NCBI GenBank assembly: GCA_001778375.1
Contig: MFGV01000075.1
Coordinates: forward strand, 2,354-66,353
Direction: 5' to 3'
DNA: 64,000 nucleotides
From: Candidatus Firestonebacteria bacterium RIFOXYD2_FULL_39_29
GTDB lineage: Bacteria > Oederibacteriota > D2-FULL-39-29
The notes beneath the pieces were generated by a model that worked only from the letters and a program-made list of their open reading frames with translations, was not told where the DNA came from and made no database searches. Both the position numbers and the translations under genes were made by a program. Every line of letters begins with the position of its first letter. Position 1 is the stretch's first letter. Shown here in pieces: positions 1 through 11,960 of this stretch.

Positions 1-2149
1 TCAAAATCAATGGGTTCATTTTAGAGAAATATTCACGAAGGGCTTCACCGTATGAAGATCTCATCCATTTATTAGATGTTATATAGCAGAATATTCCAGT
101 TTCTTTTTTTACTAGCTGCAGTCCTAATTCATAAAACAAACAATAAATATCTCCTGTTCGCTCAAACGTTTTATACCCTACATTCTCATACAAGTTTGCT
201 AGAGCACCATGGTTTCTCTGTAGCTGAACGTAAGGAGGGTTCCCTATACAAATATCATATCTCTCAACACCAAGCATCATTTTTGAATCAAAGAACAAAG
301 CAGATATATCCGTCCTGAATGGATCATAGCTCTCAAGTTGCTTGCTTAACTCTGATTTCCTAATACCCTTATTATCTTTGTTTTTGGCCTCCATATATTT
401 GTAAAACTTTTCTTTTATTGCCTTTTTAGCTTTGTAATCTCCAGGCACAAAATACTCTTCTCTTGCTTCAGACACTTTACCTTCAAGCGATGTGTCATCA
501 TCAAACGCATATTGTACGCTTTCATTCTTTAGCTTCACCAAGCTGTTAGCGCAAACAAACTTAAAGACAAGGTTCGGAAGTGGATCTATTTTCCCTGTCT
601 TTGCGTGTTCATCCACCACTATTGAAAGCCAAACCCTTAACCTGGCTATCTCAATAGCCATTGGCTCTATATCAACGCCAAAAATACTATTCTTAATGAT
701 TTCCATTTTTTTCTTGTAGTGATCAATGCTTGGCTCTATTCTTTCATAGCTGGCAAGGATAAGATGAAGCATTCCCATCGGAAACGCACCGGAACCGCAG
801 GCAGGATCTATAATCTTAACTTCATCAAGAGCTTTCTCAATATCATATTTGTATTGTTTTAAATCAGCGCGATAGTTTCTTGCCTGATCCCGAAATTCAT
901 GGTCTTTGGTATCAAGGAGGAGCCCAAGAATTTTCTCCTTGTTCTGGTCATCCTTGAGTCGAGTTTTAAGATACTCCCTTAAACTTTCCTTACACATAAA
1001 ATCAACTATTTCCCTGGGAGTATAGAAGGCTCCTTTGGCCTTTCTTGCTTGTTCACCAGTTTCTTCTACCTGTTCGGCAAGGAGGTTCTCAAATATTCTT
1101 CCTAACATTTCAGGATCAATTGCTATTTGCTGGTATGTGCTGGTACTCTCGTCAGTTGTGAAATTATAGTGCTTAAAAAAACCATATAAACGGATGAAGT
1201 AATCTTTAGGGAATTTGAGTTTCTTATCTTCAAAGCCGTCGAACTCTTTAGGTTCGAAGATACCACCGTTCAAGAAAGGGGTTGTTCTATCAACGCCTTT
1301 TTCTCTTTTGTTGACTTCAGTGTTTAACACTTTGAAAAACAGCGTTTCAAGCTTTCCTTTATAATATTTTGTTCCGTCTTCAGCCTCAGCATCAAAGTAT
1401 TTATTGTCTGGACTAATAACACCTTTTTTGTTCAAAAACCAGCAAAAGATAATACGACCTAATAACCTATTTGCAAACTGTGCTGCGTGTTTTTCATCAA
1501 GATATTTTATATCTTCACTTAAGTACTGTCTTAGCTCTGTAAAGAAACCGCTTATATCTTTATAGAACTGCTTATTGACCGGTTCAAGGTCAAAACTTGA
1601 CCAAAGAATTTCGTGCGCTTGGGCTTTGTTACTAAAGTCGATGGGTTGCAGCCACTTCGCAAGAATTTCCTGTTGCGTTACTTTTAATGATTCTTCTAAT
1701 TCCAATGTTCTTATTACATAGTTTTTGCTTAATACAATAATGACTCTATCAGCCTCTTCGGGAATGATGAAATCAATGCCAACATTTAAGTCTGCAAAAT
1801 ATGGAGCATCTTCGAAGTTGGGAGTGAGGGCAACAGCCCAGCTAACATTTGCTTTTGATGAGTTCTTCAGCCAGAATGCTTTTATATCAACATTGTTTCC
1901 GCTTCCATCGGCGATTTTATAAGCTGCCCTTTTATCCGCAAATCCTTCTGCCTGCATAAAGAAACTTGCATTCGAGCGAATCTTACCTTGATTATCATTA
2001 AAGAGAACCCACTTGTCTTTGGAAGGAACATCAAGAAGGGAAATAATACCATCAATAACAGCCTGGGCATTACCAAAGCAATGCTTACTATTTAAAGCTA
2101 TTAATGCTTTATCAATAATGCCTAGCTTATTATTTATTGTCCCTGACAT
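1..2149 (-). CDS. N6-adenine DNA methyltransferase, gamma class (Eco57I/PglX/DrmMI-like), C-terminus beyond window start
   Basis: Continuous minus-strand reading frame from ATG at 2149 to position 1 without stop (hand translation). FYTPREIVDFM motif, then DPACGSGAF (motif I), then NPPY (motif IV), which is the gamma-class order. Long N-terminal extension. Start overlaps the stop of the upstream helicase gene by ~20 nt. Confidence 0.8.
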   Translation of the reverse strand, partial: MSGTINNKLGIIDKALIALNSKHCFGNAQAVIDGIISLLDVPSKDKWVLFNDNQGKIRSNASFFMQAEGFADKRAAYKIADGSGNNVDIKAFWLKNSSKANVSWAVALTPNFEDAPYFADLNVGIDFIIPEEADRVIIVLSKNYVIRTLELEESLKVTQQEILAKWLQPIDFSNKAQAHEILWSSFDLEPVNKQFYKDISGFFTELRQYLSEDIKYLDEKHAAQFANRLLGRIIFCWFLNKKGVISPDNKYFDAEAEDGTKYYKGKLETLFFKVLNTEVNKREKGVDRTTPFLNGGIFEPKEFDGFEDKKLKFPKDYFIRLYGFFKHYNFTTDESTSTYQQIAIDPEMLGRIFENLLAEQVEETGEQARKAKGAFYTPREIVDFMCKESLREYLKTRLKDDQNKEKILGLLLDTKDHEFRDQARNYRADLKQYKYDIEKALDEVKIIDPACGSGAFPMGMLHLILASYERIEPSIDHYKKKMEIIKNSIFGVDIEPMAIEIARLRVWLSIVVDEHAKTGKIDPLPNLVFKFVCANSLVKLKNESVQYAFDDDTSLEGKVSEAREEYFVPGDYKAKKAIKEKFYKYMEAKNKDNKGIRKSELSKQLESYDPFRTDISALFFDSKMMLGVERYDICIGNPPYVQLQRNHGALANLYENVGYKTFERTGDIYCLFYELGLQLVKKETGIFCYITSNKWMRSSYGEALREYFSKMNPLIL

Positions 2150-5100
2150 AATATAACATCTCCCTTGACTCAACAACCTTTGCAGTGATATTGGAACTTG
2201 CTCCCTTGTTTTTGGAGATTTTCACAAGTTCTTTTATTAATTCAAGGATGTCTTTGTTTTCTTTTGCTCTCTTTACAATTTCCCTGGTCAGCTTTTTGAT
2301 TTTCTGACTGTCCAATACATTTTTAGTCTGAAAAGATATTCGAGCTAACTTAATATCTTCCATCTCAAAGTGAAGGTTATACATAAGTTCAAGAACCTTG
2401 TTCTGCTGGCCAATAGGTGAACCAGCTGCTTCCGAAACCGTATATGACTGTGACTTTTGCCTAACAATCTCAGATACCTCCACTTTGCTGATACTAATTT
2501 TATCGGCAACACGCTTATTATCGTCTTTATTTGTCTTTAGCCATTCCAAGGCCTGAAGTTGAGGCACCGCTTTGAAATCATCACCATCTTTTGTTGTGGC
2601 ATAAAAGGCATAGCCAATTCCTTTTTCTTTTTCGGAGTCAAGCCTGCTAAGAATCAAAACATCGCCGCGCTTTTCACCATGGTGTTCACATTCCGGCATT
2701 ACAGCCCACTTGCCTTCTGATATACAGTATATGTCTTTCTTATATGCTTCAGGTATGTTTTCATCTTCATGGAATATTTTAAGATCTGACACATAATCAT
2801 CTTCCGCGAGAAGCAAATCGGACTCCTTTTCAGCCTCCTCAAACGCTTTCATTCTTTTTGCCTGATCATCACTATATATGTCTTTCCAAGTATCTGTAAA
2901 CTCAATAGGATTTTCTTTCTCGTCCAACACCGGAGTATCCGTACCTATTGTATTCTTTATGAGATTGATTTTTCCTTCCAGACGCTCTACCAACCTTAAA
3001 TGCTCTTCAAGCTGCTGTTCTGGGCTTATGTTATATATGTAAACATTTTTAAATTCTGAGCCAATCCTATTTATTCTGCCGTTTCTTTGTATCATCCTTA
3101 CTGGATTCCAATGCAGGTCATAATTTATAAGAATACCGCAATCTTGAAGGTTCTGACCTTCAGATAAAATATCGGTGGAGAATAGCCATTTTATTTCTGG
3201 TTTGCCCTTCAATTCGTATTTTTGTGCTTTAGGTGCAAAGCTTCCTGATAAAATATCTGCATCGACTCTGTTTCTTGAAGAAAGAAAGCCCTCTTTACCT
3301 TTTATGAACGGTGTGTGTTTGGGTAGTTCTCTTTTTAGATATTCAACCGTGTCTGCAAAGAACGAGAAAACCAGTACTTTTCCACCATTAGTATTCTTCT
3401 TGTTAATCTCATTGAGCAGATCGGCAAATGCTTTTATCTTTGAGTCGTCCTTTTCAATAATCGCAAGCTGTTGGTCAAGGACTTTAAGAAGTTGTTTTTC
3501 TTTTTCTATATCTTGCTTTAGCTCCTTGAGCGCATACCTCTTATCATCAACCTTATCAAGCTCAAGTTCTTTGATTTGATCCTGGTCTTCCGCATCTGCC
3601 TCATCATCACTTATCTCAAGTAATTGGCTTATAGCATCGGGATCATCCATACTAACAATTATATTTTTATTCAGTCCCTTTTCGAATATTTCCAGCTTCT
3701 CTCCGTAATTATCAAGAGAATACCGCAAAGCAGAAACAGAAGATTCAAGTCGCTTTAAAAGCGAGGTTCTTAATATCCCATATAAGCTAATCTGCCTGTA
3801 TAAATCCATTCTTTCTTCGCCGGGTAGGTTCAGCGCTTTTATCTGCTCACGCGTTTTTCCATAATACTTTGTCTGATACATTCTCCATTTGTAATGGATA
3901 AAACCTAGCATTAAGAGTGTTTTATAAACATAGCTAATCGGAGACTCATCTGTTTTCTCTTTTTCCATACATTTAATACTTCTAAGTTGCCTTAAAGGAT
4001 GCAGCAGATCTTTTGTATTATCTATAATGTCACCGGTTTGGAGGCAATATATTGTTTTCAAATCTATTTCTTTACTTTTAAGCCCCTGTATTTCCTTTAG
4101 GACTTCTTCCTTAAAACGGTATTTTTTTACTTCGGGATATGGTACCGGAAAGCCTGATTCTTTACCGTCAATTCTCAAACATCCATATTCTTTTATTATC
4201 CCCTGTCTTGTTCTACGCACCACAAAAGCCCTAATAATCGGCGCCATTATCTGCCTTACATAATCAAAATCTATCTCGCCCTTTTCACTATAATCTTGAT
4301 TCATTTTCTTTTTAAGATTTTGTATTGCAGTATAAAAATCAAGAGGAGCTGTGTGTTTAAGTTTATTATCAACAGCAGTGACCCTGAAAACATCAGCCTC
4401 CCCACCTGTGCCAAGAAGGATCTGATTTGACAAGTCATTTATCTGATTGTTAATCGGAGTGGCTGTCAGAAGAAGCACATGGCAGTTTTTATTAGTTCTT
4501 ATCCAATTAACTATCTGGTCAAATCTTTTTCCGGCTTTATTCCGTAGGTTATGGGATTCGTCTAAAACAAACAAGCTTACACCAGCTATTTTATCCAACG
4601 CTATCCGAGATTCTATCTCCTTTTGATTTTGCAGGGTTAGAGGTGTAATGTTTAAAACACCTTGGGTAGTCAATTCCTTGGTCCACTGATTCTTTAACGA
4701 CTTTGGACAAATCACCTCAATCCGCTTCTGTACACCGTCTCCGGTAAGGTACTGTTTGATGACTTCTATTGCCGTGTATGTCTTACCCAAACCGACGGAA
4801 TCGGCAAGCATCGCTACCTTGTATTTTCTTAACCTTCGGATAAGAGCGTGAACATTCTTTATCTGAAAGCTCATGAGATCGTGCGCGCCTTTTAGGCTGG
4901 TATCAAGCTCTTCTTCTTCAAGTTCTTCTTTGTACAGTTCATATAAAGTCTTGATATAAGTTTCATAAGGACTGTAAAGAGTATCTCCTACCGGAGAAAG
5001 CTCCAATATCTCGCTAAATTTTCCATCCCAGTCTTCCGTTGTCGGATCATTCCATAATTCATCAAACCAGAAGAGATGGCCTGCTTCCTGATCTTTACTT

Positions 5101-5609
5101 TTTGGTTGGAAATACACTATTCTATGGTCTGATTCTAAAGCGTTTAGCTCAGTGTTATGGGTCAATCCGCTTTCCGTAAAATTTGATGACCCAATGATGC
5201 CGATACCTTCTTTGCAGGAGTAATCTCCAAATATATAGCACTTGGCATGCAAAAAAGTCTTTCTATATACTTTGACTTCTAGAACCTTTTGATCAATTAA
5301 TTTTTTTAAACAAGTAATTGTATTTTTGAGTTTTCCGCTTGGAGGCATGCTTGCTAAATCATACTTAAAATCTTGATCAGGATAATCCGTTTCGGGGGAA
5401 GTTAATTGATGCCTTGGGATTAACGGCTCGCGTCCTATCAATAGCCGTATTTTCTTATATTTCCTTAGATTATCAATTACAAGGTCTGTTCCAGCAAGAT
5501 TCCAATATCCTGTAGCAATAGAAAGTGTATCAAAATCAGAGGAAATGTTTTTAATTGCATTCAAAAGGGAGACTCTTTTATTGTCAATTATCTTTGGTAA
5601 CCTTGCCAT
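2130..5609 (-). CDS. PLD-family nuclease domain fused to SNF2/DEXH helicase (1159 aa)
   Basis: N-terminal HKD-type motif HAKCYIF followed by GSSNFT (PLD/Nuc-like). Helicase motif I LADSVGLGKT, motif II VLDESHNLRN, motif III LLLTATPINN, motif VI QRNGRINRIGS. RBS AGGGGCGGAG upstream of ATG at 5609. Confidence 0.85.
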   Translation of the reverse strand: MARLPKIIDNKRVSLLNAIKNISSDFDTLSIATGYWNLAGTDLVIDNLRKYKKIRLLIGREPLIPRHQLTSPETDYPDQDFKYDLASMPPSGKLKNTITCLKKLIDQKVLEVKVYRKTFLHAKCYIFGDYSCKEGIGIIGSSNFTESGLTHNTELNALESDHRIVYFQPKSKDQEAGHLFWFDELWNDPTTEDWDGKFSEILELSPVGDTLYSPYETYIKTLYELYKEELEEEELDTSLKGAHDLMSFQIKNVHALIRRLRKYKVAMLADSVGLGKTYTAIEVIKQYLTGDGVQKRIEVICPKSLKNQWTKELTTQGVLNITPLTLQNQKEIESRIALDKIAGVSLFVLDESHNLRNKAGKRFDQIVNWIRTNKNCHVLLLTATPINNQINDLSNQILLGTGGEADVFRVTAVDNKLKHTAPLDFYTAIQNLKKKMNQDYSEKGEIDFDYVRQIMAPIIRAFVVRRTRQGIIKEYGCLRIDGKESGFPVPYPEVKKYRFKEEVLKEIQGLKSKEIDLKTIYCLQTGDIIDNTKDLLHPLRQLRSIKCMEKEKTDESPISYVYKTLLMLGFIHYKWRMYQTKYYGKTREQIKALNLPGEERMDLYRQISLYGILRTSLLKRLESSVSALRYSLDNYGEKLEIFEKGLNKNIIVSMDDPDAISQLLEISDDEADAEDQDQIKELELDKVDDKRYALKELKQDIEKEKQLLKVLDQQLAIIEKDDSKIKAFADLLNEINKKNTNGGKVLVFSFFADTVEYLKRELPKHTPFIKGKEGFLSSRNRVDADILSGSFAPKAQKYELKGKPEIKWLFSTDILSEGQNLQDCGILINYDLHWNPVRMIQRNGRINRIGSEFKNVYIYNISPEQQLEEHLRLVERLEGKINLIKNTIGTDTPVLDEKENPIEFTDTWKDIYSDDQAKRMKAFEEAEKESDLLLAEDDYVSDLKIFHEDENIPEAYKKDIYCISEGKWAVMPECEHHGEKRGDVLILSRLDSEKEKGIGYAFYATTKDGDDFKAVPQLQALEWLKTNKDDNKRVADKISISKVEVSEIVRQKSQSYTVSEAAGSPIGQQNKVLELMYNLHFEMEDIKLARISFQTKNVLDSQKIKKLTREIVKRAKENKDILELIKELVKISKNKGASSNITAKVVESREMLYYVRDNK

Positions 5610-5654
5610 CTATTCTCCGCCCCTGCTAAATTTTCACCCAAACAACATACAACT

Positions 5655-5880
5655 ATTATGATTTTACCATAAAAAAAGGTTTTTAAATAGTGGGAATTTG
5701 CATTTCGATGTAAAAACAAGGCAATATGAGTAGGATTTAAAAGATTTTATTTAGGGGCCGGCGGTCGCCCCTATTCGGTACTCAAGGGGTGAAACGGAGC
5801 GACCTGAAGGAATTGCGTCCGGCCCGTTTTAACTATTCGCTTATTCTATGAATTCTTTAAAAGGCTATCAAGCTAGTTAT
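5655..5880. repeat. Repeat A, copy 1: ~230 bp module with GC-rich imperfect palindrome (approx 5748-5845) plus AT-rich part carrying conserved TGGTAAAAT
   Basis: Homologous to 6455-6700. Conserved arms ATTTAGGGGCCGGCGGTCGCCC and GGAATTGCGTCCGGCCCGTTTTAAC are imperfect inverted repeats of each other; the centre differs between copies. Lies directly upstream of the helicase start. Confidence 0.7.
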
Positions 5881-6143
5881 TAGTTGCAGTTTTGCAGCAC
5901 ATTTTGAATTACTTTTAAATCTGCAATGATATTCTTCATTTCTTCATCATCATTTGTACCAAAAAGAACACTGTCGTACAAGTTTTTTTGTTCTATATGG
6001 AACAGGTGGTCATCACAAATGTTTTTCGTTATCCCTGCTGATTCTTCTTCTAAAATGCGCCTTAAAATCATAATCCGGACTTTATTTTCATCAATGCCAA
6101 AATCGTTCATCTTGCCCCCCTTGAAAATATTGGGGACAGACAC
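5880..6143 (-). CDS. hypothetical small protein (76-87 aa; probable true start MNDFGIDENK near 6110 with RBS AAGGGGGGC)
   Basis: Track ORF. N-terminal part overlaps repeat B copy 1. No recognisable domain. Confidence 0.4.
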   Translation of the reverse strand: MSVPNIFKGGKMNDFGIDENKVRIMILRRILEEESAGITKNICDDHLFHIEQKNLYDSVLFGTNDDEEMKNIIADLKVIQNVLQNCN

Positions 6144-6225
6144 CGCTTATCCTCCAAAAAGATCGGAGGATGAACAATATATAATTTTCACATTATAGTC
6201 GTTCAAAGATGTTGTCAGTCCCCGC
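6124..6225. repeat. Repeat B, copy 1: ~95 bp element with imperfect terminal inverted repeats and internal hairpin
   Basis: GGGGACAGACACC ... TGTTGTCAGTCCCC termini; internal ATCCTCC-N9-GGAGGAT hairpin; three copies in the window. Confidence 0.75.
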
Positions 6226-6253
6226 TATTTCAACCTTTGCCTATCGTAGATTT

Positions 6254-6403
6254 TTAGCCCGCTTCATTAACTTTAACGGCAGATTCATCAAACTTTTTTA
6301 AAAGCTTTATTTCCGCAGGAAGAAGAAACTTAGTATTTGAAAGTGAATTTAGCGTTAGTTTCTCTATTTCCGTCAGCACCACGTTGATTCTATATTCGGG
6401 CAT
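6254..6403 (-). CDS. hypothetical small protein (49 aa from MPEYRINVV; strong RBS AAAGGAGC)
   Basis: Track ORF 6254..6442 trimmed to the internal ATG that is preceded by an RBS. Upstream region is homologous to the helicase upstream region (repeat A module). Confidence 0.45.
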   Translation of the reverse strand: MPEYRINVVLTEIEKLTLNSLSNTKFLLPAEIKLLKKFDESAVKVNEAG

Positions 6404-6454
6404 TGAATTGCTCCTTTCATTTAATAAAAACAATTTTACCACAAAAGTGACTTA

Positions 6455-6700
6455 AAACAAAGGTTTTTGGACCAATATATTCATTACAGAGTAACGCTTT
6501 TCTATGGATTTATGGGAGAGAAAGGAAGTCATTTACGAGGATTTTATTTAGGGGCCGGCGGTCGCCCTCAGAAAAATAGAGCAATAGAAATTCGAAAACA
6601 TGCCTGACGGCATGATGCGAAAGGAATTGCGTCCGGACCGTTTTAACTACTCGTTGATTTTGTTTTTATTCTTTGAAATCTTTAAAAGGCTATCAAGATT
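6455..6700. repeat. Repeat A, copy 2 (~245 bp, GC-rich palindrome approx 6548-6650)
   Basis: Same conserved arms and TGGTAAAAT block as copy 1. The variable centre contains the hairpin GCATCATGCC-GTCAG-GCATGATGC. Confidence 0.7.
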
Positions 6701-6800
6701 GTTGTTAGCTGCTGTTTTTGCGTTATTTTGATCTGAAGTGGTTGTTCGGAATTTCCGAACAACTGATTGCTTTTCTAATTCACCTTCATTAAATATGTTG
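6700..6800 (-). pseudogene. degenerate remnant homologous to the 5880-6143 small ORF
   Basis: Minus-strand translation NIFNEGELEKQSVVRKF...NNAKTAANN resembles NIFKGGKMNDFG...QNVLQNCN of the neighbouring ORF. Flanked by repeat B copy 2 and repeat A copy 2 in the same arrangement as the intact unit. Confidence 0.3.
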
Positions 6801-6895
6801 GGGACAGACACCGGAATATCCTCCTAAGAGATTGGCGGATGAACAAATATGTATTTTACATTATGGTTGTTCAGATGTTGTCAGTCCCCGCTTTT
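6799..6895. repeat. Repeat B, copy 2
   Basis: Near-identical to 6124-6225 and 8020-8115. Overlaps the last ~11 codons of rhuM. Confidence 0.75.
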
Positions 6896-7925
6896 GTTTC
6901 TTCTCAACCTTTTTCTGCACGGTTTTAATGGTTTCCAAATAGGCTCTTTCCACAGGAGAAAGTGTTTTAACATGATATTTAAGGTATTCCTTTTCAGCTT
7001 TTTGCATTGCTTCATTGTGGCTGATTTTACCCGCGTCAGGCAGCACACCCTTCCCATACATTTTAGTAAATTTATCAAGTTCCGCTATCCAGTCTTTCAT
7101 CAGCATCCGGGTATGTTCCCGGGCTTTAATCTCAGCAAGGTCGAAAAATGCCGATACCAGGCGGTTAAGACGAAACAATTCATCTTCGTTAAGGTAATTT
7201 TTGGCGATTTTAGTTTCTGCTTTTATCGGTATCTCACCGGTAAAAGTTGTCAATCCCATAAAATCTTTTTCAGCATCGGCGCGCGAATAAATCGTTTCAG
7301 CTGCGGTTTTTTTATTGACTGCATAATGAAGTTTGTTTTGTACTGTTTTAAAAAACCGTATTGATTCTTGTGTGTCAGGATCATAATCAACACTGGTCGC
7401 GTAGAGCTCAAGGACCTGGCGGTACAGCACTTTTTCGCTGCTGCGGATATCGCGGATACGTTCTAAAAGCTCTTTCCAGTAATTCCCCCCGCCCGAGCCT
7501 TTGAGTCTCTCGTCATCCATGGTGAAACCTTTAATCAAATATTCTTTTAGTCGTTGCGTTGCCCACTGCCTGAATTGAGTGCCGCGAATACTGCTTATTC
7601 TATAACCAACAGAAATGATCATATCAAGGTTATAGAACTCAACATCTCTGGAAACATTGCGTTTACCTTCCTTTTGAACTATTAAGAATTCCTTAATAGT
7701 TGACGCACGCTCAAGTTCGCCCTCCGTGAAAATATTCTTAATGTGAATGTTAATATTGGGAATCGAAGTTTGAAACAATTCCGCCATCAATTGCTGGGAA
7801 AGCCAAACCGTCTCATCCTGAAAACGAACCTCAAGCTTCGTTTTCCCGTCTTCTGCCTGATACATCATAATTGATGAATTATTCATTAAATCCCTGGATA
7901 TTTTGTTGTTCTCAACTTGTGACAT
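6861..7925 (-). CDS. rhuM: RhuM-family virulence/Fic-associated protein
   Basis: 354 aa. Conserved RhuM N-terminal block VWLSQQLMAELFQTSIPNINIHIKNIF and the MIISVGYRISSIRGTQFRQWAT region. RBS AAGGAGC; TAGTAAAAT -10-like sequence upstream. Confidence 0.75.
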   Translation of the reverse strand: MSQVENNKISRDLMNNSSIMMYQAEDGKTKLEVRFQDETVWLSQQLMAELFQTSIPNINIHIKNIFTEGELERASTIKEFLIVQKEGKRNVSRDVEFYNLDMIISVGYRISSIRGTQFRQWATQRLKEYLIKGFTMDDERLKGSGGGNYWKELLERIRDIRSSEKVLYRQVLELYATSVDYDPDTQESIRFFKTVQNKLHYAVNKKTAAETIYSRADAEKDFMGLTTFTGEIPIKAETKIAKNYLNEDELFRLNRLVSAFFDLAEIKAREHTRMLMKDWIAELDKFTKMYGKGVLPDAGKISHNEAMQKAEKEYLKYHVKTLSPVERAYLETIKTVQKKVEKKQKRGLTTSEQP

Positions 7926-8019: not shown

Positions 8020-8115
8020 ACTATTGGGGACAGACACCGAAATATCCTCCTAAGAGATTGGCGGATGAACAAATATGTATTTTACATTATGGTTGTTCAG
8101 ATGTTGTCAGTCCCC
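8020..8115. repeat. Repeat B, copy 3
   Basis: Same element, immediately 3' of the stop of the 8117-9533 gene. Confidence 0.75.
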
Positions 8116-10572: not shown

Positions 10573-10777
10573 TTTCACCCCAAGTGAAAAAATTGACGAT
10601 TTACGATTGACAATTGACGATTTTATGTACACGGCGTAAAGATGCCGCGAATATTAAATAAGAACAAAAAAAACAACCTACTGATTAATTTACTTCTGTT
10701 TCACCCCGGAACAAGAAAATAGAACAATAGAGCAATTGACCGCTACCGCTCTGCCAAATTTATCCTTCGGATAAATT

Positions 10778-11063: not shown

Positions 11064-11226
11064 CTAAACAAGAACAACGTTCATAAAGTTTTTAAGGTTT
11101 GTAAGGTCTATAAGGCAAACGACCAAACATTTTAAAAACATTTAGAGCTCATAAAAATAATAATCATTCCATAATCTAATTTCTATTGTCGATTTTCTAT
11201 TGCTCTAATTTTGCCGAGCAAAATTA

Positions 11227-11473: not shown

Positions 11474-11613
11474 TCCTTAAATACATTAAGGTCGAGGTTA
11501 TAATCAAATAAAAACTTTGAAAATAGAAAATCGAGCAATAGATCGAAATTATTTTTATATGTATTCTAACGTCTATTGTTCAATTTCTCCACCAATTTTA
11601 CATTCTGTAAAAT

Positions 11614-11688
11614 TGGTGGGTCATGGGGGAATCGAACCCACGACCTCCCGATTAATATCGTCCACCTAGGTGGATAATCTAATAGCCC
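11614..11688 (-). pseudogene. degenerate tRNA-Lys-like copy (D-arm replaced by palindrome TCCACCTAGGTGGA)
   Basis: 3' half is identical to tRNA-Lys (TCGGGAGGTCGTGGGTTCGATTCCCCCATG) but with an acceptor mismatch, no foldable D-arm or anticodon stem, and an encoded CCA. Overlaps the inverted repeat CCACCAATTTTA-N7-TAAAATTGGTGG. Confidence 0.5.
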
Positions 11689-11781
11689 ATTTTTCAATTA
11701 CTGAAATTTAATGATTATAATCTTTGGGCTTTCTCACTGCCCTGTCCTTAAATACTATTAAAAACAGGGTATTGAATAAAT

Positions 11782-11854: not shown

Positions 11855-11920
11855 CATCTTTAATCCAATATAATTTTATCTTTTCTATGTTATTAAGACT
11901 ATTTTCGCCTCTTAATATTT

Positions 11921-11960
11921 GTTAAGAGTCGTCCACCTAGGTGGATGAGCTAATGGCCCA
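11921..11960 (-). pseudogene. 5' half fragment of tRNA-Lys with palindrome TCCACCTAGGTGGA in the D-arm position
   Basis: GGGCCATTAGCTCA-TCCACCTAGGTGGA-CGACTCTTAA aligns with the tRNA-Lys 5' half. Same 5' flank (AATTGAAAATGGGC) as the degenerate copy at 11614-11688. Confidence 0.45.

Follow-up and report, generated by a model that had tools for sequence, protein, structure and literature searches.

Two GC-rich palindromes beside candidate defence genes are probably differently shortened copies of one longer stretch of DNA

Among GC-rich intergenic repeats, REPINs are dispersed in tens to hundreds of copies whose flanks differ, together with a RAYT transposase. The element described here is like a REP or REPIN (BIME) in being GC-rich and intergenic, in lying after the end of a gene, and in carrying inverted arms around a less conserved spacer within about 100 nt. 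It differs from them in having three copies in one duplicated context and partly complementary arms, and no RAYT gene was found among the annotated parts of the window (positions 1 to ~57,000), the window being the whole 64-kb stretch of DNA that was analysed. The element also recalls an attC site in that it lies downstream of a small ORF, its inverted repeat is imperfect, some of its bases are unpaired and its middle varies in length, but it is without core motifs, an IntI integrase or a cassette array, and its middle appears to be a deletion remnant. Here we argue, with a probability of roughly 0.6, that the palindromes are differently shortened copies of one longer stretch, a product of ordinary genome decay rather than a novel RNA or a novel site of recombination. 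Judged from the sequence comparisons below, the element would be low-copy, lineage-specific intergenic DNA, duplicated and decaying, between the end of ORF76 and a shared extended -10 promoter.

Two copies, A and B, lie in the window, and a third, C, lies at a second locus (L087, here locus C) recovered from the same groundwater metagenomes. The minus strand is the strand of all genes in the region, and the window measures 38.3% G+C, somewhat above the 35% given in the preliminary description. The two GC-rich arms reported there for each copy are where they had been placed: the pattern ATTTAGGGGCCGGCGGTCGCCC occurs at 5749-5770 and 6546-6567, inside an exact 28-nt repeat (5743-5770 and 6540-6567), and the pattern GGAATTGCGTCCGG(C/A)CCGTTTTAAC at 5809-5833 and 6623-6647. 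Each pattern has exactly two occurrences in the 64-kb window, against a chance expectation of 0.00-0.03. The centres between the arms measure 38 nt in copy A and 55 nt in copy B, and MAFFT could not align them. The features are as follows, by window position.

2130..5609, minus strand: gene for a PLD (HKD) nuclease-SNF2 helicase of 1159 aa (Pfam; PADLOC C3a139 'HKD+Snf2', E = 3e-50)
5661..5671, minus strand: extended -10 of predicted promoter A, TATGGTAAAAT; the PLD-SNF2 start codon (ATG 5609) lies 52 nt downstream
5743..5769, minus strand: arm3 of copy A, GGCGACCGCCGGCCCCTAAATAAAATC, 27/27 nt identical across A, B and C
5770..5806, minus strand: centre of copy A, composed of c1 (CAGGTCGCTCCGTTTCACCC, 5787-5806), c3 (CTTGAGTACCG, 5776-5786) and a 6-nt filler (three-way alignment and BLAST of L087)
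5807..5836, minus strand: arm5 of copy A, on the gene strand ATAGTTAAAACGGGCCGGACGCAATTCCTT, 97% identical to locus C and 93% to copy B
5843..5871, minus strand: promoter-like block of A, TTGATA-17-TAGAAT (promoter scan)
5880..6110, minus strand: ORF76, a small gene of a rare family, with a good Shine-Dalgarno sequence
6132..6223, minus strand: hairpin repeat P1, GGGGACTGACAAC...GGTGTCTGTCCCC, fold z = -4.0, at the upstream edge of module A
6254..6403, minus strand: ORF49, a small conserved gene (49 aa)
6433..6503, minus strand: promoter module B, including the extended -10 TGTGGTAAAAT (6433-6443), predicted to drive ORF49
6540..6566, minus strand: arm3 of copy B, the same 27 nt as in A and C
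6567..6620, minus strand: centre of copy B, ~25 nt weakly matching the interior of C, then c5 (TTCGAATTTCTATTGCTCTATTTTTCTGAG)
6621..6650, minus strand: arm5 of copy B, with a G-to-T change within the GGGCCGG stem half
6668-6696, minus strand: promoter-like block of B, TTGATA-17-AAGAAT
6731..6799, minus strand: RhuM relic, 69 nt, codons for NIFNEGELEKQSVVRKFRTT, from another RhuM-family gene than the intact one
6800..6889, minus strand: hairpin repeat P2, at the upstream edge of module B
8026..8115, minus strand: hairpin repeat P3, on the upstream side of the intact RhuM gene; over 93 nt it shares 98.9% identity with P2
Locus C: promoter-like block, TTGGTA-17-TAAAAT

At ~290 nt (L087 8678-8963) the third copy is the longest version, with its arms ~225 nt apart, and these are recognizably the arms of the window: arm5 is 97% identical, differing in sequence (GTTATAAAC), and arm3 matches at 27/27 positions. 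With nhmmer, window positions 6615-6433 aligned to C positions 240-431 (E = 2e-32). Copy A retains two interior pieces of C, c1 and c3 (20 and 11 nt), and copy B retains another, c5, which corresponds by homology to the 3' end of the locus C interior (~30 nt shared). The centres of A and B look unrelated because A keeps c1 and c3 whereas B keeps c5. Given that the two copies hold different leftovers of one interior, the unrelated variable centre of the preliminary description is better read as the residue of independent internal deletions than as a designed feature.

All three copies share the same flanks, an ORF76-type 3' block upstream and the promoter module downstream, which argues that the element spread by segmental duplication and not by insertion. 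Identity between the copies is mosaic: left of the centre it is 94-97% for A and C, and right of arm3 it is 51% for A and C and 87% for B and C. The duplicated unit is larger than the ~230 bp originally proposed and extends upstream through the ORF76-type segment to a 90-nt hairpin repeat, P, giving the unit order P, ORF76, element, promoter module. P is itself present in three copies, each just past the end of a gene, and the intact RhuM ORF runs 11 codons into P2; a search of IMG/VR with P returned five matches, without the second arm, which we judged to be chance. The sequences of A, B and C all come from one groundwater population, the contigs of which break exactly at these repeats in the assemblies. 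All contigs that carry the window locus present one sequence, with a single SNP in ORF76 and none in the elements. When the ends of the window contig and the locus C contig were compared for abutment, nothing was shared.

Further copies, for which the preliminary description had proposed a search, amounted to the one at L087: nhmmer and blastn over the window and ~60 kb of further sequence from these organisms revealed no other, and no exact match to either arm was found in IMG/VR. Exact matching of one arm (arm1) against 185,579 species genomes (GTDB) gave two matches, both in high-GC genomes and without the second arm, which is consistent with chance, and exact matching of one arm (arm2) against JGI metagenomes gave none. 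These collection scans detect exact matches, so that diverged copies escape them, as the difference in arm5 of locus C itself illustrates. At eight loci that encode relatives of the helicase (52-63% identity), the GC-rich element is absent and an HTH_17 gene lies upstream in its place. Similarity to plasmid and phage DNA was confined to the RhuM relic, and the full locus C element had no match among plasmids.

The neighbours of the copies are candidate defence genes. PLD-SNF2 is the first gene of the promoter A operon; next comes a methyltransferase gene of the MmeI/Eco57I type, which continues beyond the edge of the window. ORF76 shares 96% nucleotide identity with its locus C homologue; a word-index search returned ORF76 alone, and a full HMMER search recovered a relative, P0006, with 60% protein identity, which rules out that ORF76 is an orphan. 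Relatives of ORF49 (75-98% identity) occur in other gene contexts. In copy B the 69-nt RhuM relic is fused to P2 on one side and on the other passes directly into sequence homologous to the ORF76 3' end, beyond which come the shortened element and the promoter leading into ORF49. The relic was identified by tblastn (E = 8e-6) and by the PADLOC PDC-S05 HMMs (E = 4e-9), and blastn matched it to at least 40 RhuM genes, down to E = 6e-14. The relic includes the RhuM palindrome (6741-6763); in genes of the RhuM family a perfect palindrome lies within the coding sequence, after the EGEL motif, and is kept by changes on both arms.

A RhuM origin was also considered for the arms themselves, read as pseudogene codons (TGRTQF for RGTQFRQWA and GDRRPL for DDERLK) colinear with RhuM residues ~107-141. 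In matches to RhuM profiles (full-length PADLOC models and a 20-sequence HMM), the copy B arms add ~2.5-5 bits (8/2000 shuffles). We rejected this origin because the arms of locus C lie ~225 nt apart, or 75 codons versus 24 in copy B, and because the block between the relic and arm5 is ORF76-derived, as judged by P0006, which leaves 6731-6799 as the only RhuM-derived segment. The translations had no match in Pfam or PHROGs, and neither a homologue search with the composite translation of copy B nor a scan of viral contigs yielded candidates.

Downstream of the arms, an extended -10, TGGTAAAAT, follows each window copy and leads into a minus-strand gene, as had been described: one precedes the helicase-methylase operon and the other ORF49, where it sits 30 nt upstream of the start codon (ATG 6403). 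Copy B had previously been bounded at 6455-6700, which omits its own -10 at 6433-6443. Both sites have the TGn and TATAAT-like hexamer of a sigma-70 extended -10, with a GGAG-type Shine-Dalgarno sequence before both start codons, and we regard the modules as predicted promoters. Two sequences at locus C (L087 9000-9070 and 6221-6299) match module B at 86-87% identity, so that the ~80-nt AT-rich promoter module has four occurrences over two loci; one of the four is armless. That armless module (L087 6221-6299) lies upstream of an AlbA_2/HATPase_c_4 gene and directly after an ordinary terminator. Duplication of the promoter region is supported, and the outcome comes closest to the simple local duplication that the preliminary description had set against its own proposals.

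We favour relic DNA over a designed site, and the course of events under this reading can be sketched. The unit would have spread by segmental duplication or gene conversion within a mosaic defence island, and its copies would then have been shortened by internal deletions. The duplicated promoter would now serve ORF49, and the promoter of copy A the PLD-SNF2/methyltransferase operon. The arms would be the halves of an inverted repeat that started right after the ancestral ORF76 stop codon, and, once transcribed or as single-stranded DNA, they could pair into a split helix of 15-17 bp. Such a hairpin most likely explains why the interior was lost and the ends spared, through slippage across its base. 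Its role would at most be that of a stem separating ORF76 from the promoter downstream, as a 3' end or an insulator, and the working part is presumably the ~80-nt AT-rich module. Most likely, then, the element is an inverted repeat that survives as a relic at the ORF76 3' end.

The alternative that fares best grants the hairpin a function. In this explanation, which we consider unlikely, the stem stops or stabilizes the ORF76 transcript and shields the promoter from read-through; it would be under selection, with the interior dispensable. Arm5 of copy A begins at the end of the longer ORF76-family protein P0006, as aligned with the C-terminal codons of the latter, and arm3 is identical in 3/3 copies. 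In copies A and C, arm5 and c1 pair with arm3 in a split helix of 15-17 bp (-25.9 kcal/mol; 7/2000 shuffles, ~0.4%). The duplex of copy A is formed by arm5 plus the adjoining 9 nt against arm3, which in the minimum-free-energy fold pairs with arm5 (GGGCCGG, C) and with c1 (GGTCGCTCC). Both arms are kept in 3/3 copies although three or four deletions took most of the interior; for random deletions in the spacer, we roughly estimate the chance that both arms survive at 0.02-0.05. Arm retention and 100% arm3 identity could therefore reflect selection on the helix. Against this, copy B has lost half of the helix and carries an uncompensated mismatch (-14.3 kcal/mol; 1048/2000 shuffles equal or better), so that the original view of the two arms as imperfect inverted repeats holds in part, for copy A and not for copy B. 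The helix also has a 12-nt bulge on its 5' strand, and no U-tract was found after the stem (CUAAAUAAAAUC), which is not a canonical intrinsic terminator; a scan for intrinsic terminators did not flag the element (tail CTAAATAAAATC, loop of at least 23 nt).

Two RNA-centred explanations follow. The broader one, which we hold to be rather improbable, is that the full ~290-nt element is an undescribed non-coding element of the defence-island scaffold, of which A and B are minimal working versions; such an element might be small mobile DNA or a transcript of the block promoter, with the closing helix under selection. The narrower one, a shade less probable again, posits a gene for a small non-coding RNA that is transcribed from a promoter of its own (TTGATA-17-TAGAAT) and closed by a stem of the two arms; it would measure ~290 nt at C and ~100 nt in the window. 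Its promoter would be the block upstream of arm5, which is the best sigma-70-like match in the region (10/12 positions); in A, B and C the hexamers stay promoter-like and the 17-nt spacing is constant, and an RNA may start there. The closing helix, moreover, is significant in A and C. However, the block is homologous to LNNLLKTLDKE, the C-terminal codons of the longer ORF76 homologue P0006, and thus derives from coding sequence; two thirds of the interior were deleted, in two different ways; and a terminator is absent. Within the 7-bp stem there is a single substitution: in B a G has changed to T, which disrupts a pair and is uncompensated. Fold z-scores for the whole element on the gene strand are -2.1 (A), -0.9 (B) and -0.4 (C), with values of ~0 on the opposite strand, and no whole-element fold is significant. 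The element matched no Rfam family in the window or at related loci: the whole window gave five tRNAs only at the gathering score, window 5500-7000 and L087 8100-9700 gave sub-threshold snoRNA/sRNA noise only at E up to 10, and loci L083-L086 gave nothing save one tRNA. The structured RNA suggested in the preliminary description is not borne out by these results.

Mobility of the element itself is improbable. A MITE or other mobile DNA with terminal inverted repeats, of which A and B would be internally deleted, non-autonomous versions, would account for ends that resemble such repeats (present in A and C, lost in B) and for deletions that alter the interior yet leave the ends in place, a pattern typical of non-autonomous elements. 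Yet the three copies share one flanking context, no target-site duplication is visible at their ends, and no other copy occurs in the 64-kb window, in ~60 kb of further sequence or in the collections. No transposase lies nearby, save for a possible IS at the far contig end, which is our own putative reading.

Still harder to sustain is the idea that a regulator, perhaps the neighbouring AlbA_2/HATPase_c_4 protein, binds the GC arms and so controls the helicase operon and ORF49 together. Both promoters do have these arms upstream of them, and an AlbA_2/HATPase_c_4 gene adjoins both loci, but arm3 lies 71 nt from the -10 in A as opposed to 96 nt in B and C, identity between the two AlbA_2 proteins is only 24%, and at locus C an armless promoter module lies upstream of the regulator gene. 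An operator, if any, would more likely consist of the small palindromes within the AT-rich module than of the arms, and the regulator-binding platform first proposed is not supported for the arms. An attC-like or other site-specific recombination site that exchanges cassettes, also among the original suggestions, is barely credible: mosaic flank identity with apparent break points at the arms and an imperfect inverted repeat architecture would suit it, but the ends of the element are GTTAAAAC...CCCCTAAAT when read along the gene strand and ATTTAGGGG...GTTTTAAC along its complement, neither of which is RYYYAAC...GTTRRRY (GTTRRRY was absent from the element ends, and the nearest look-alikes are in reverse order), no integrase or recombinase is annotated in window positions 1 to ~57,000 (Pfam on gene calls), and the three copies have the same neighbours and centres that differ by deletion and not by cassette.

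Taken as relic DNA, the element has little import beyond this genome, and its annotation as an RNA gene or an attC site is unwarranted. Its lesson is that conserved arms around a variable centre can arise through independent internal deletions of one longer repeat. The locus also illustrates the rewiring of a defence island, in which a promoter was copied onto a neighbouring small gene while a relic of a replaced RhuM gene was left behind. The palindrome in RhuM coding sequence is a more promising lead than the GC-rich element. If the arms proved to be selected, they would offer a small, tractable example of a hairpin that insulates the promoter of a defence operon.

Set beside known systems, the element shares with MITEs the retention of inverted-repeat ends around an interior deleted to differing extents, but it lacks a target-site duplication, independent flanks and a transposase-bearing parent. 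It is like Rho-independent terminators and 3'-UTR hairpins in placing a GC-rich stem right after an ancestral upstream stop codon; it differs in having no U-tract, a loop or interior of 23-225 nt and a 12-nt bulge on the 5' strand. The remaining comparison is with the segmental duplicates and debris of defence islands. From these the element differs in that it keeps both GC arms, with arm3 100% identical, which goes somewhat beyond neutral decay, whereas it resembles them in its three copies with identical flanks, mosaic identity and independent deletions, in the fused RhuM relic, in the promoter duplicated onto another gene and in its candidate defence neighbours.

The repeat in the window is real; most of the interpretation placed on it in the preliminary description is incorrect. 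What has been duplicated, and is now eroding, is an intergenic segment of low copy number, specific to the lineage, within a mosaic defence island. In the reading that we favour (probability about 0.6), segmental duplication would have come first, with internal deletions arising afterwards around what is left of an inverted repeat at the 3' end of the small gene ORF76, and the duplicated extended -10 promoter would be functional. The window comes from a genome assembled from Rifle aquifer metagenomes (NCBI GCA_001780375.1, contig MFGU01000016.1), and the genes of the repeat region all lie on the minus strand (listed as transcribed, from high to low coordinates):

10572-9841, minus: RadC
9533-8117, minus: AlbA_2/HATPase_c_4/Fic-like_C gene, frameshifted
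8115-8026, minus: hairpin repeat P, copy P3
7925-6861, minus: RhuM-family gene, intact
6889-6800, minus: hairpin repeat P, copy P2
between P2 and ORF49, minus: module B
6403-6254, minus: ORF49
6223-6132, minus: hairpin repeat P, copy P1
6110-5880, minus: ORF76
between ORF76 and the helicase gene, minus: module A
5609-2130, minus: PLD(HKD)-SNF2 helicase, 1159 aa
after the helicase, extending beyond the window edge, minus: MmeI/Eco57I-type methyltransferase

The conserved outer parts of the GC-rich element, arm5 and arm3, lie where they had been placed, with two occurrences each in the window where chance predicts 0.00-0.03. The centres between them (38 nt in copy A, 55 nt in copy B) cannot be aligned with each other. 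As also described, an extended -10 lies behind each copy (TATGGTAAAAT at 5671-5661 in A, TGTGGTAAAAT at 6443-6433 in B), and a start codon preceded by a Shine-Dalgarno sequence follows within a short distance; the range given for copy B excluded its own -10. G+C content is 38.3% rather than ~35%, and the unit, put at ~230 bp, is larger: on its upstream side it takes in an ORF76-type segment and extends as far as the P repeat. Contigs with the locus are all identical in sequence, leaving nothing in the element to compare within its own population; several assemblies end exactly at the repeats.

Near-identical homologues of ORF49 exist, one of which (P0003) lies at a second locus from the same samples (L087-L096, L085). 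Here, at locus C on L087, an AlbA_2/HATPase_c_4 gene is followed by ORF49, P and an ORF76 96% identical to that of the window, then by the same promoter-like block and arm5, ~225 nt of interior, an identical 27-nt arm3, a promoter module 87% identical to module B and a leader like that of the helicase; the helicase is absent. In a three-way alignment, copy A is C with two stretches of the interior missing and the pieces c1 (CAGGTCGCTCCGTTTCACCC) and c3 (CTTGAGTACCG) left, and copy B is C without most of its interior, of which c5 (TTCGAATTTC.ATTGCTC...) remains. Searching with the full C element by nhmmer recovered exactly the A and B pieces in the window and nothing beyond them. Because A and B keep different pieces of the C interior, the centre, once described as unrelated sequence flanked by arms, is the residue of differing deletions. 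Identity between A and C is 94-97% left of the centre (ORF49, ORF76, arm5), 100% in the 27 nt of arm3 and 51% from the end of arm3 to the -10; for B and C the values are 90% (arm5 only), 100% and 87%. Such mosaic identities suggest gene conversion or recombination among copies.

Pairing between the arms differs among the copies. The whole arm3 stretch GG(GG)CGACC-G-CCGGCCC is base-paired in A and C, its partner being divided between arm5 (GGGCCGG + C) and c1 (GGTCGCT(CC)), and the energy of the arm duplex (-25.9 kcal/mol) was equalled by 7 of 2000 shuffles. In copy B, with c1 gone and a G-to-T change uncompensated, the duplex is no better than shuffles; the view of the arms as inverted repeats of each other therefore stands for A, where complementarity exceeds chance, and not for B. 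Both arms were retained through three or four separate deletions, for which we roughly estimate a chance of ~2-5%; this is compatible with weak selection on the helix, or with slippage across a hairpin as the way the deletions arose. A functional 3'-end or insulator hairpin, the kind of helix that selection might preserve, is an unlikely explanation. The whole 301-nt C element folds no better than shuffles (z = -0.4), and the fold energies of A and B are unremarkable (z = -2.1 and -0.9 on the gene strand, ~0 on the opposite strand). A small RNA with its own promoter is less probable again; an Rfam scan returned tRNAs and nothing on the element, and the C element had no match in Rfam, Pfam or plasmids. 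We consider a MITE-like element, a mobile origin for the paired arms, distinctly improbable. Exact-pattern scans found no arm copy in IMG/VR, no match to one arm in JGI metagenomes and only two matches in GTDB species genomes, both in high-GC genomes and due to chance.

We count four copies of the AT-rich promoter module. A shortened one precedes the helicase operon and another precedes ORF49; the remaining two are at locus C, one downstream of arm3 and one, armless, ahead of the AlbA_2/HATPase_c_4 gene and directly behind an ordinary terminator. The armless occurrence makes the promoter a separable repeat and the likeliest functional part. The proposed co-regulation of the helicase operon and ORF49 is reasonable, but any such control would reside in the AT-rich module, not in the GC arms; that the element is a regulator-binding site is very doubtful. 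An attC-like recombination site, with its variable middle, can be practically dismissed, the centres being deletion residues.

A full HMMER search found one longer ORF76 relative, P0006 (96 aa, 60% identity). The promoter-like block (TTGATAGCCTTTTAAAGAATTCATAGAAT) matches the C-terminal codons LNNLLKTLDKE of P0006 in the alignment and is thus decayed ORF76 coding sequence; the beginning of arm5 lines up with the P0006 stop codon, so the arms begin directly after the ancestral stop codon. P0006 has a weak, sub-threshold match to CdiI (CDI immunity protein). At two loci (window 6254-6403 and 5880-6110; L087 8001-8634), ORF49 and ORF76 stand together as a conserved pair of small genes, adjoined at both by an AlbA_2/HATPase_c_4 gene; neither ORF has a Pfam family. 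The loci behind their relatives are L083, L084 and L086, beside the window and L087. In other organisms, ORF49 occurs without ORF76 (75-86% identity), where it follows a PilZ gene and lies upstream of a gene for a membrane protein. Downstream of P0006, L086 820-965 folds very stably (-64.7 kcal/mol, z = -8.3); the structure has no Rfam match and is unrelated to the window element.

Translation of module B holds a clear RhuM-family fragment, NIFNEGELEKQSVVRKFRTT (tblastn E = 8e-6; PADLOC PDC-S05 models E = 4e-9; blastn to >40 RhuM genes); by the P0006 alignment, only 6731-6799 is RhuM-derived. The copy B arms at first seemed to extend the match (TGRTQF versus RGTQFRQWA, GDRRPL versus DDERLK), and a profile of 20 RhuM proteins gained ~2.5-5 bits over them, equalled by 8 of 2000 shuffles. 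A RhuM origin of the arms was rejected, as those of locus C lie 75 codons apart. With RhuM genes as a control, we saw a perfect 25-29-nt palindrome in their coding sequence, right behind the EGEL motif (for example CAGTTGTTCGGAAATTCCGAACAACTG, encoding SVVRKFRTT; loci L034-L076, with L053 the sole exception). Across 21 distinct RhuM genes, the longest perfect stem after EGEL has a median of 13 bp; 90-nt windows elsewhere in these genes average 4.3 bp (maximum 5-8). Variants change both arms and keep the pairing (AACCTGTCGGAATTTCCGACAGGTT, AACTGTTCGGAAATTCCGAACAGTT and the window's AACTATTAAGGAATTCTTAATAGTT), and the palindrome is present in both the window's divergent intact RhuM gene (7677-7701, minus) and the module B relic (6741-6763). 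This pattern is suggestive of selection acting on the DNA or RNA itself within a candidate defence gene; a literature search on RhuM and palindromes found nothing relevant.

The window and locus C islands abound in segmental repeats. P is a 90-nt hairpin repeat (GGGGACTGACAAC...GGTGTCTGTCCCC; fold z = -4.0 for P1) at 6132-6223, 6800-6889 and 8026-8115 and at L087 8152-8245, directly behind the ends of three different genes and spanning ~115 nt with ~20 nt of shared 5' flank; IMG/VR held no real match. P2 and P3 (98.9% identical over 93 nt) are direct repeats either side of the intact RhuM gene, whose ORF extends 11 codons into P2. A short AT-rich motif related to c5 (TCGAATTTC.ATTGCTCTATTTTT) lies between window tRNA genes (~10710-10735, 11180-11225, 11515-11545) and at locus C (L087 9355-9395). 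Two degenerate tRNA-Lys-like copies (~11920-11960 and 11615-11690, minus), each interrupted by TCCACCTAGGTGGAC, lie one upstream and one downstream of a nearby intact tRNA-Lys gene and may be scars of repeated integration at the tRNA cluster. At locus C, L087 5720-5830 and 9440-9560 are, by eye, ~110-nt intergenic direct repeats (AAAACCCTT...CCTGAGTTGTATAGAAA...TTCCTTCC.ACTTTTTGG).

The operon under promoter A (window 1-5609, on into L001 13962-18327) comprises the PLD(HKD)-SNF2 helicase (PADLOC C3a139 'HKD+Snf2'), the 1051-aa MmeI/Eco57I-type methyltransferase and two small ORFs (292 and 84 aa); the terminal gene of its contig resembles, as read from sequence, a transposase. Relatives of the helicase (52-63% identity) have a small HTH_17 gene upstream, in place of the element. 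Five tRNA genes are clustered directly upstream of RadC, and the region looks like a defence island beside a tRNA hot spot.
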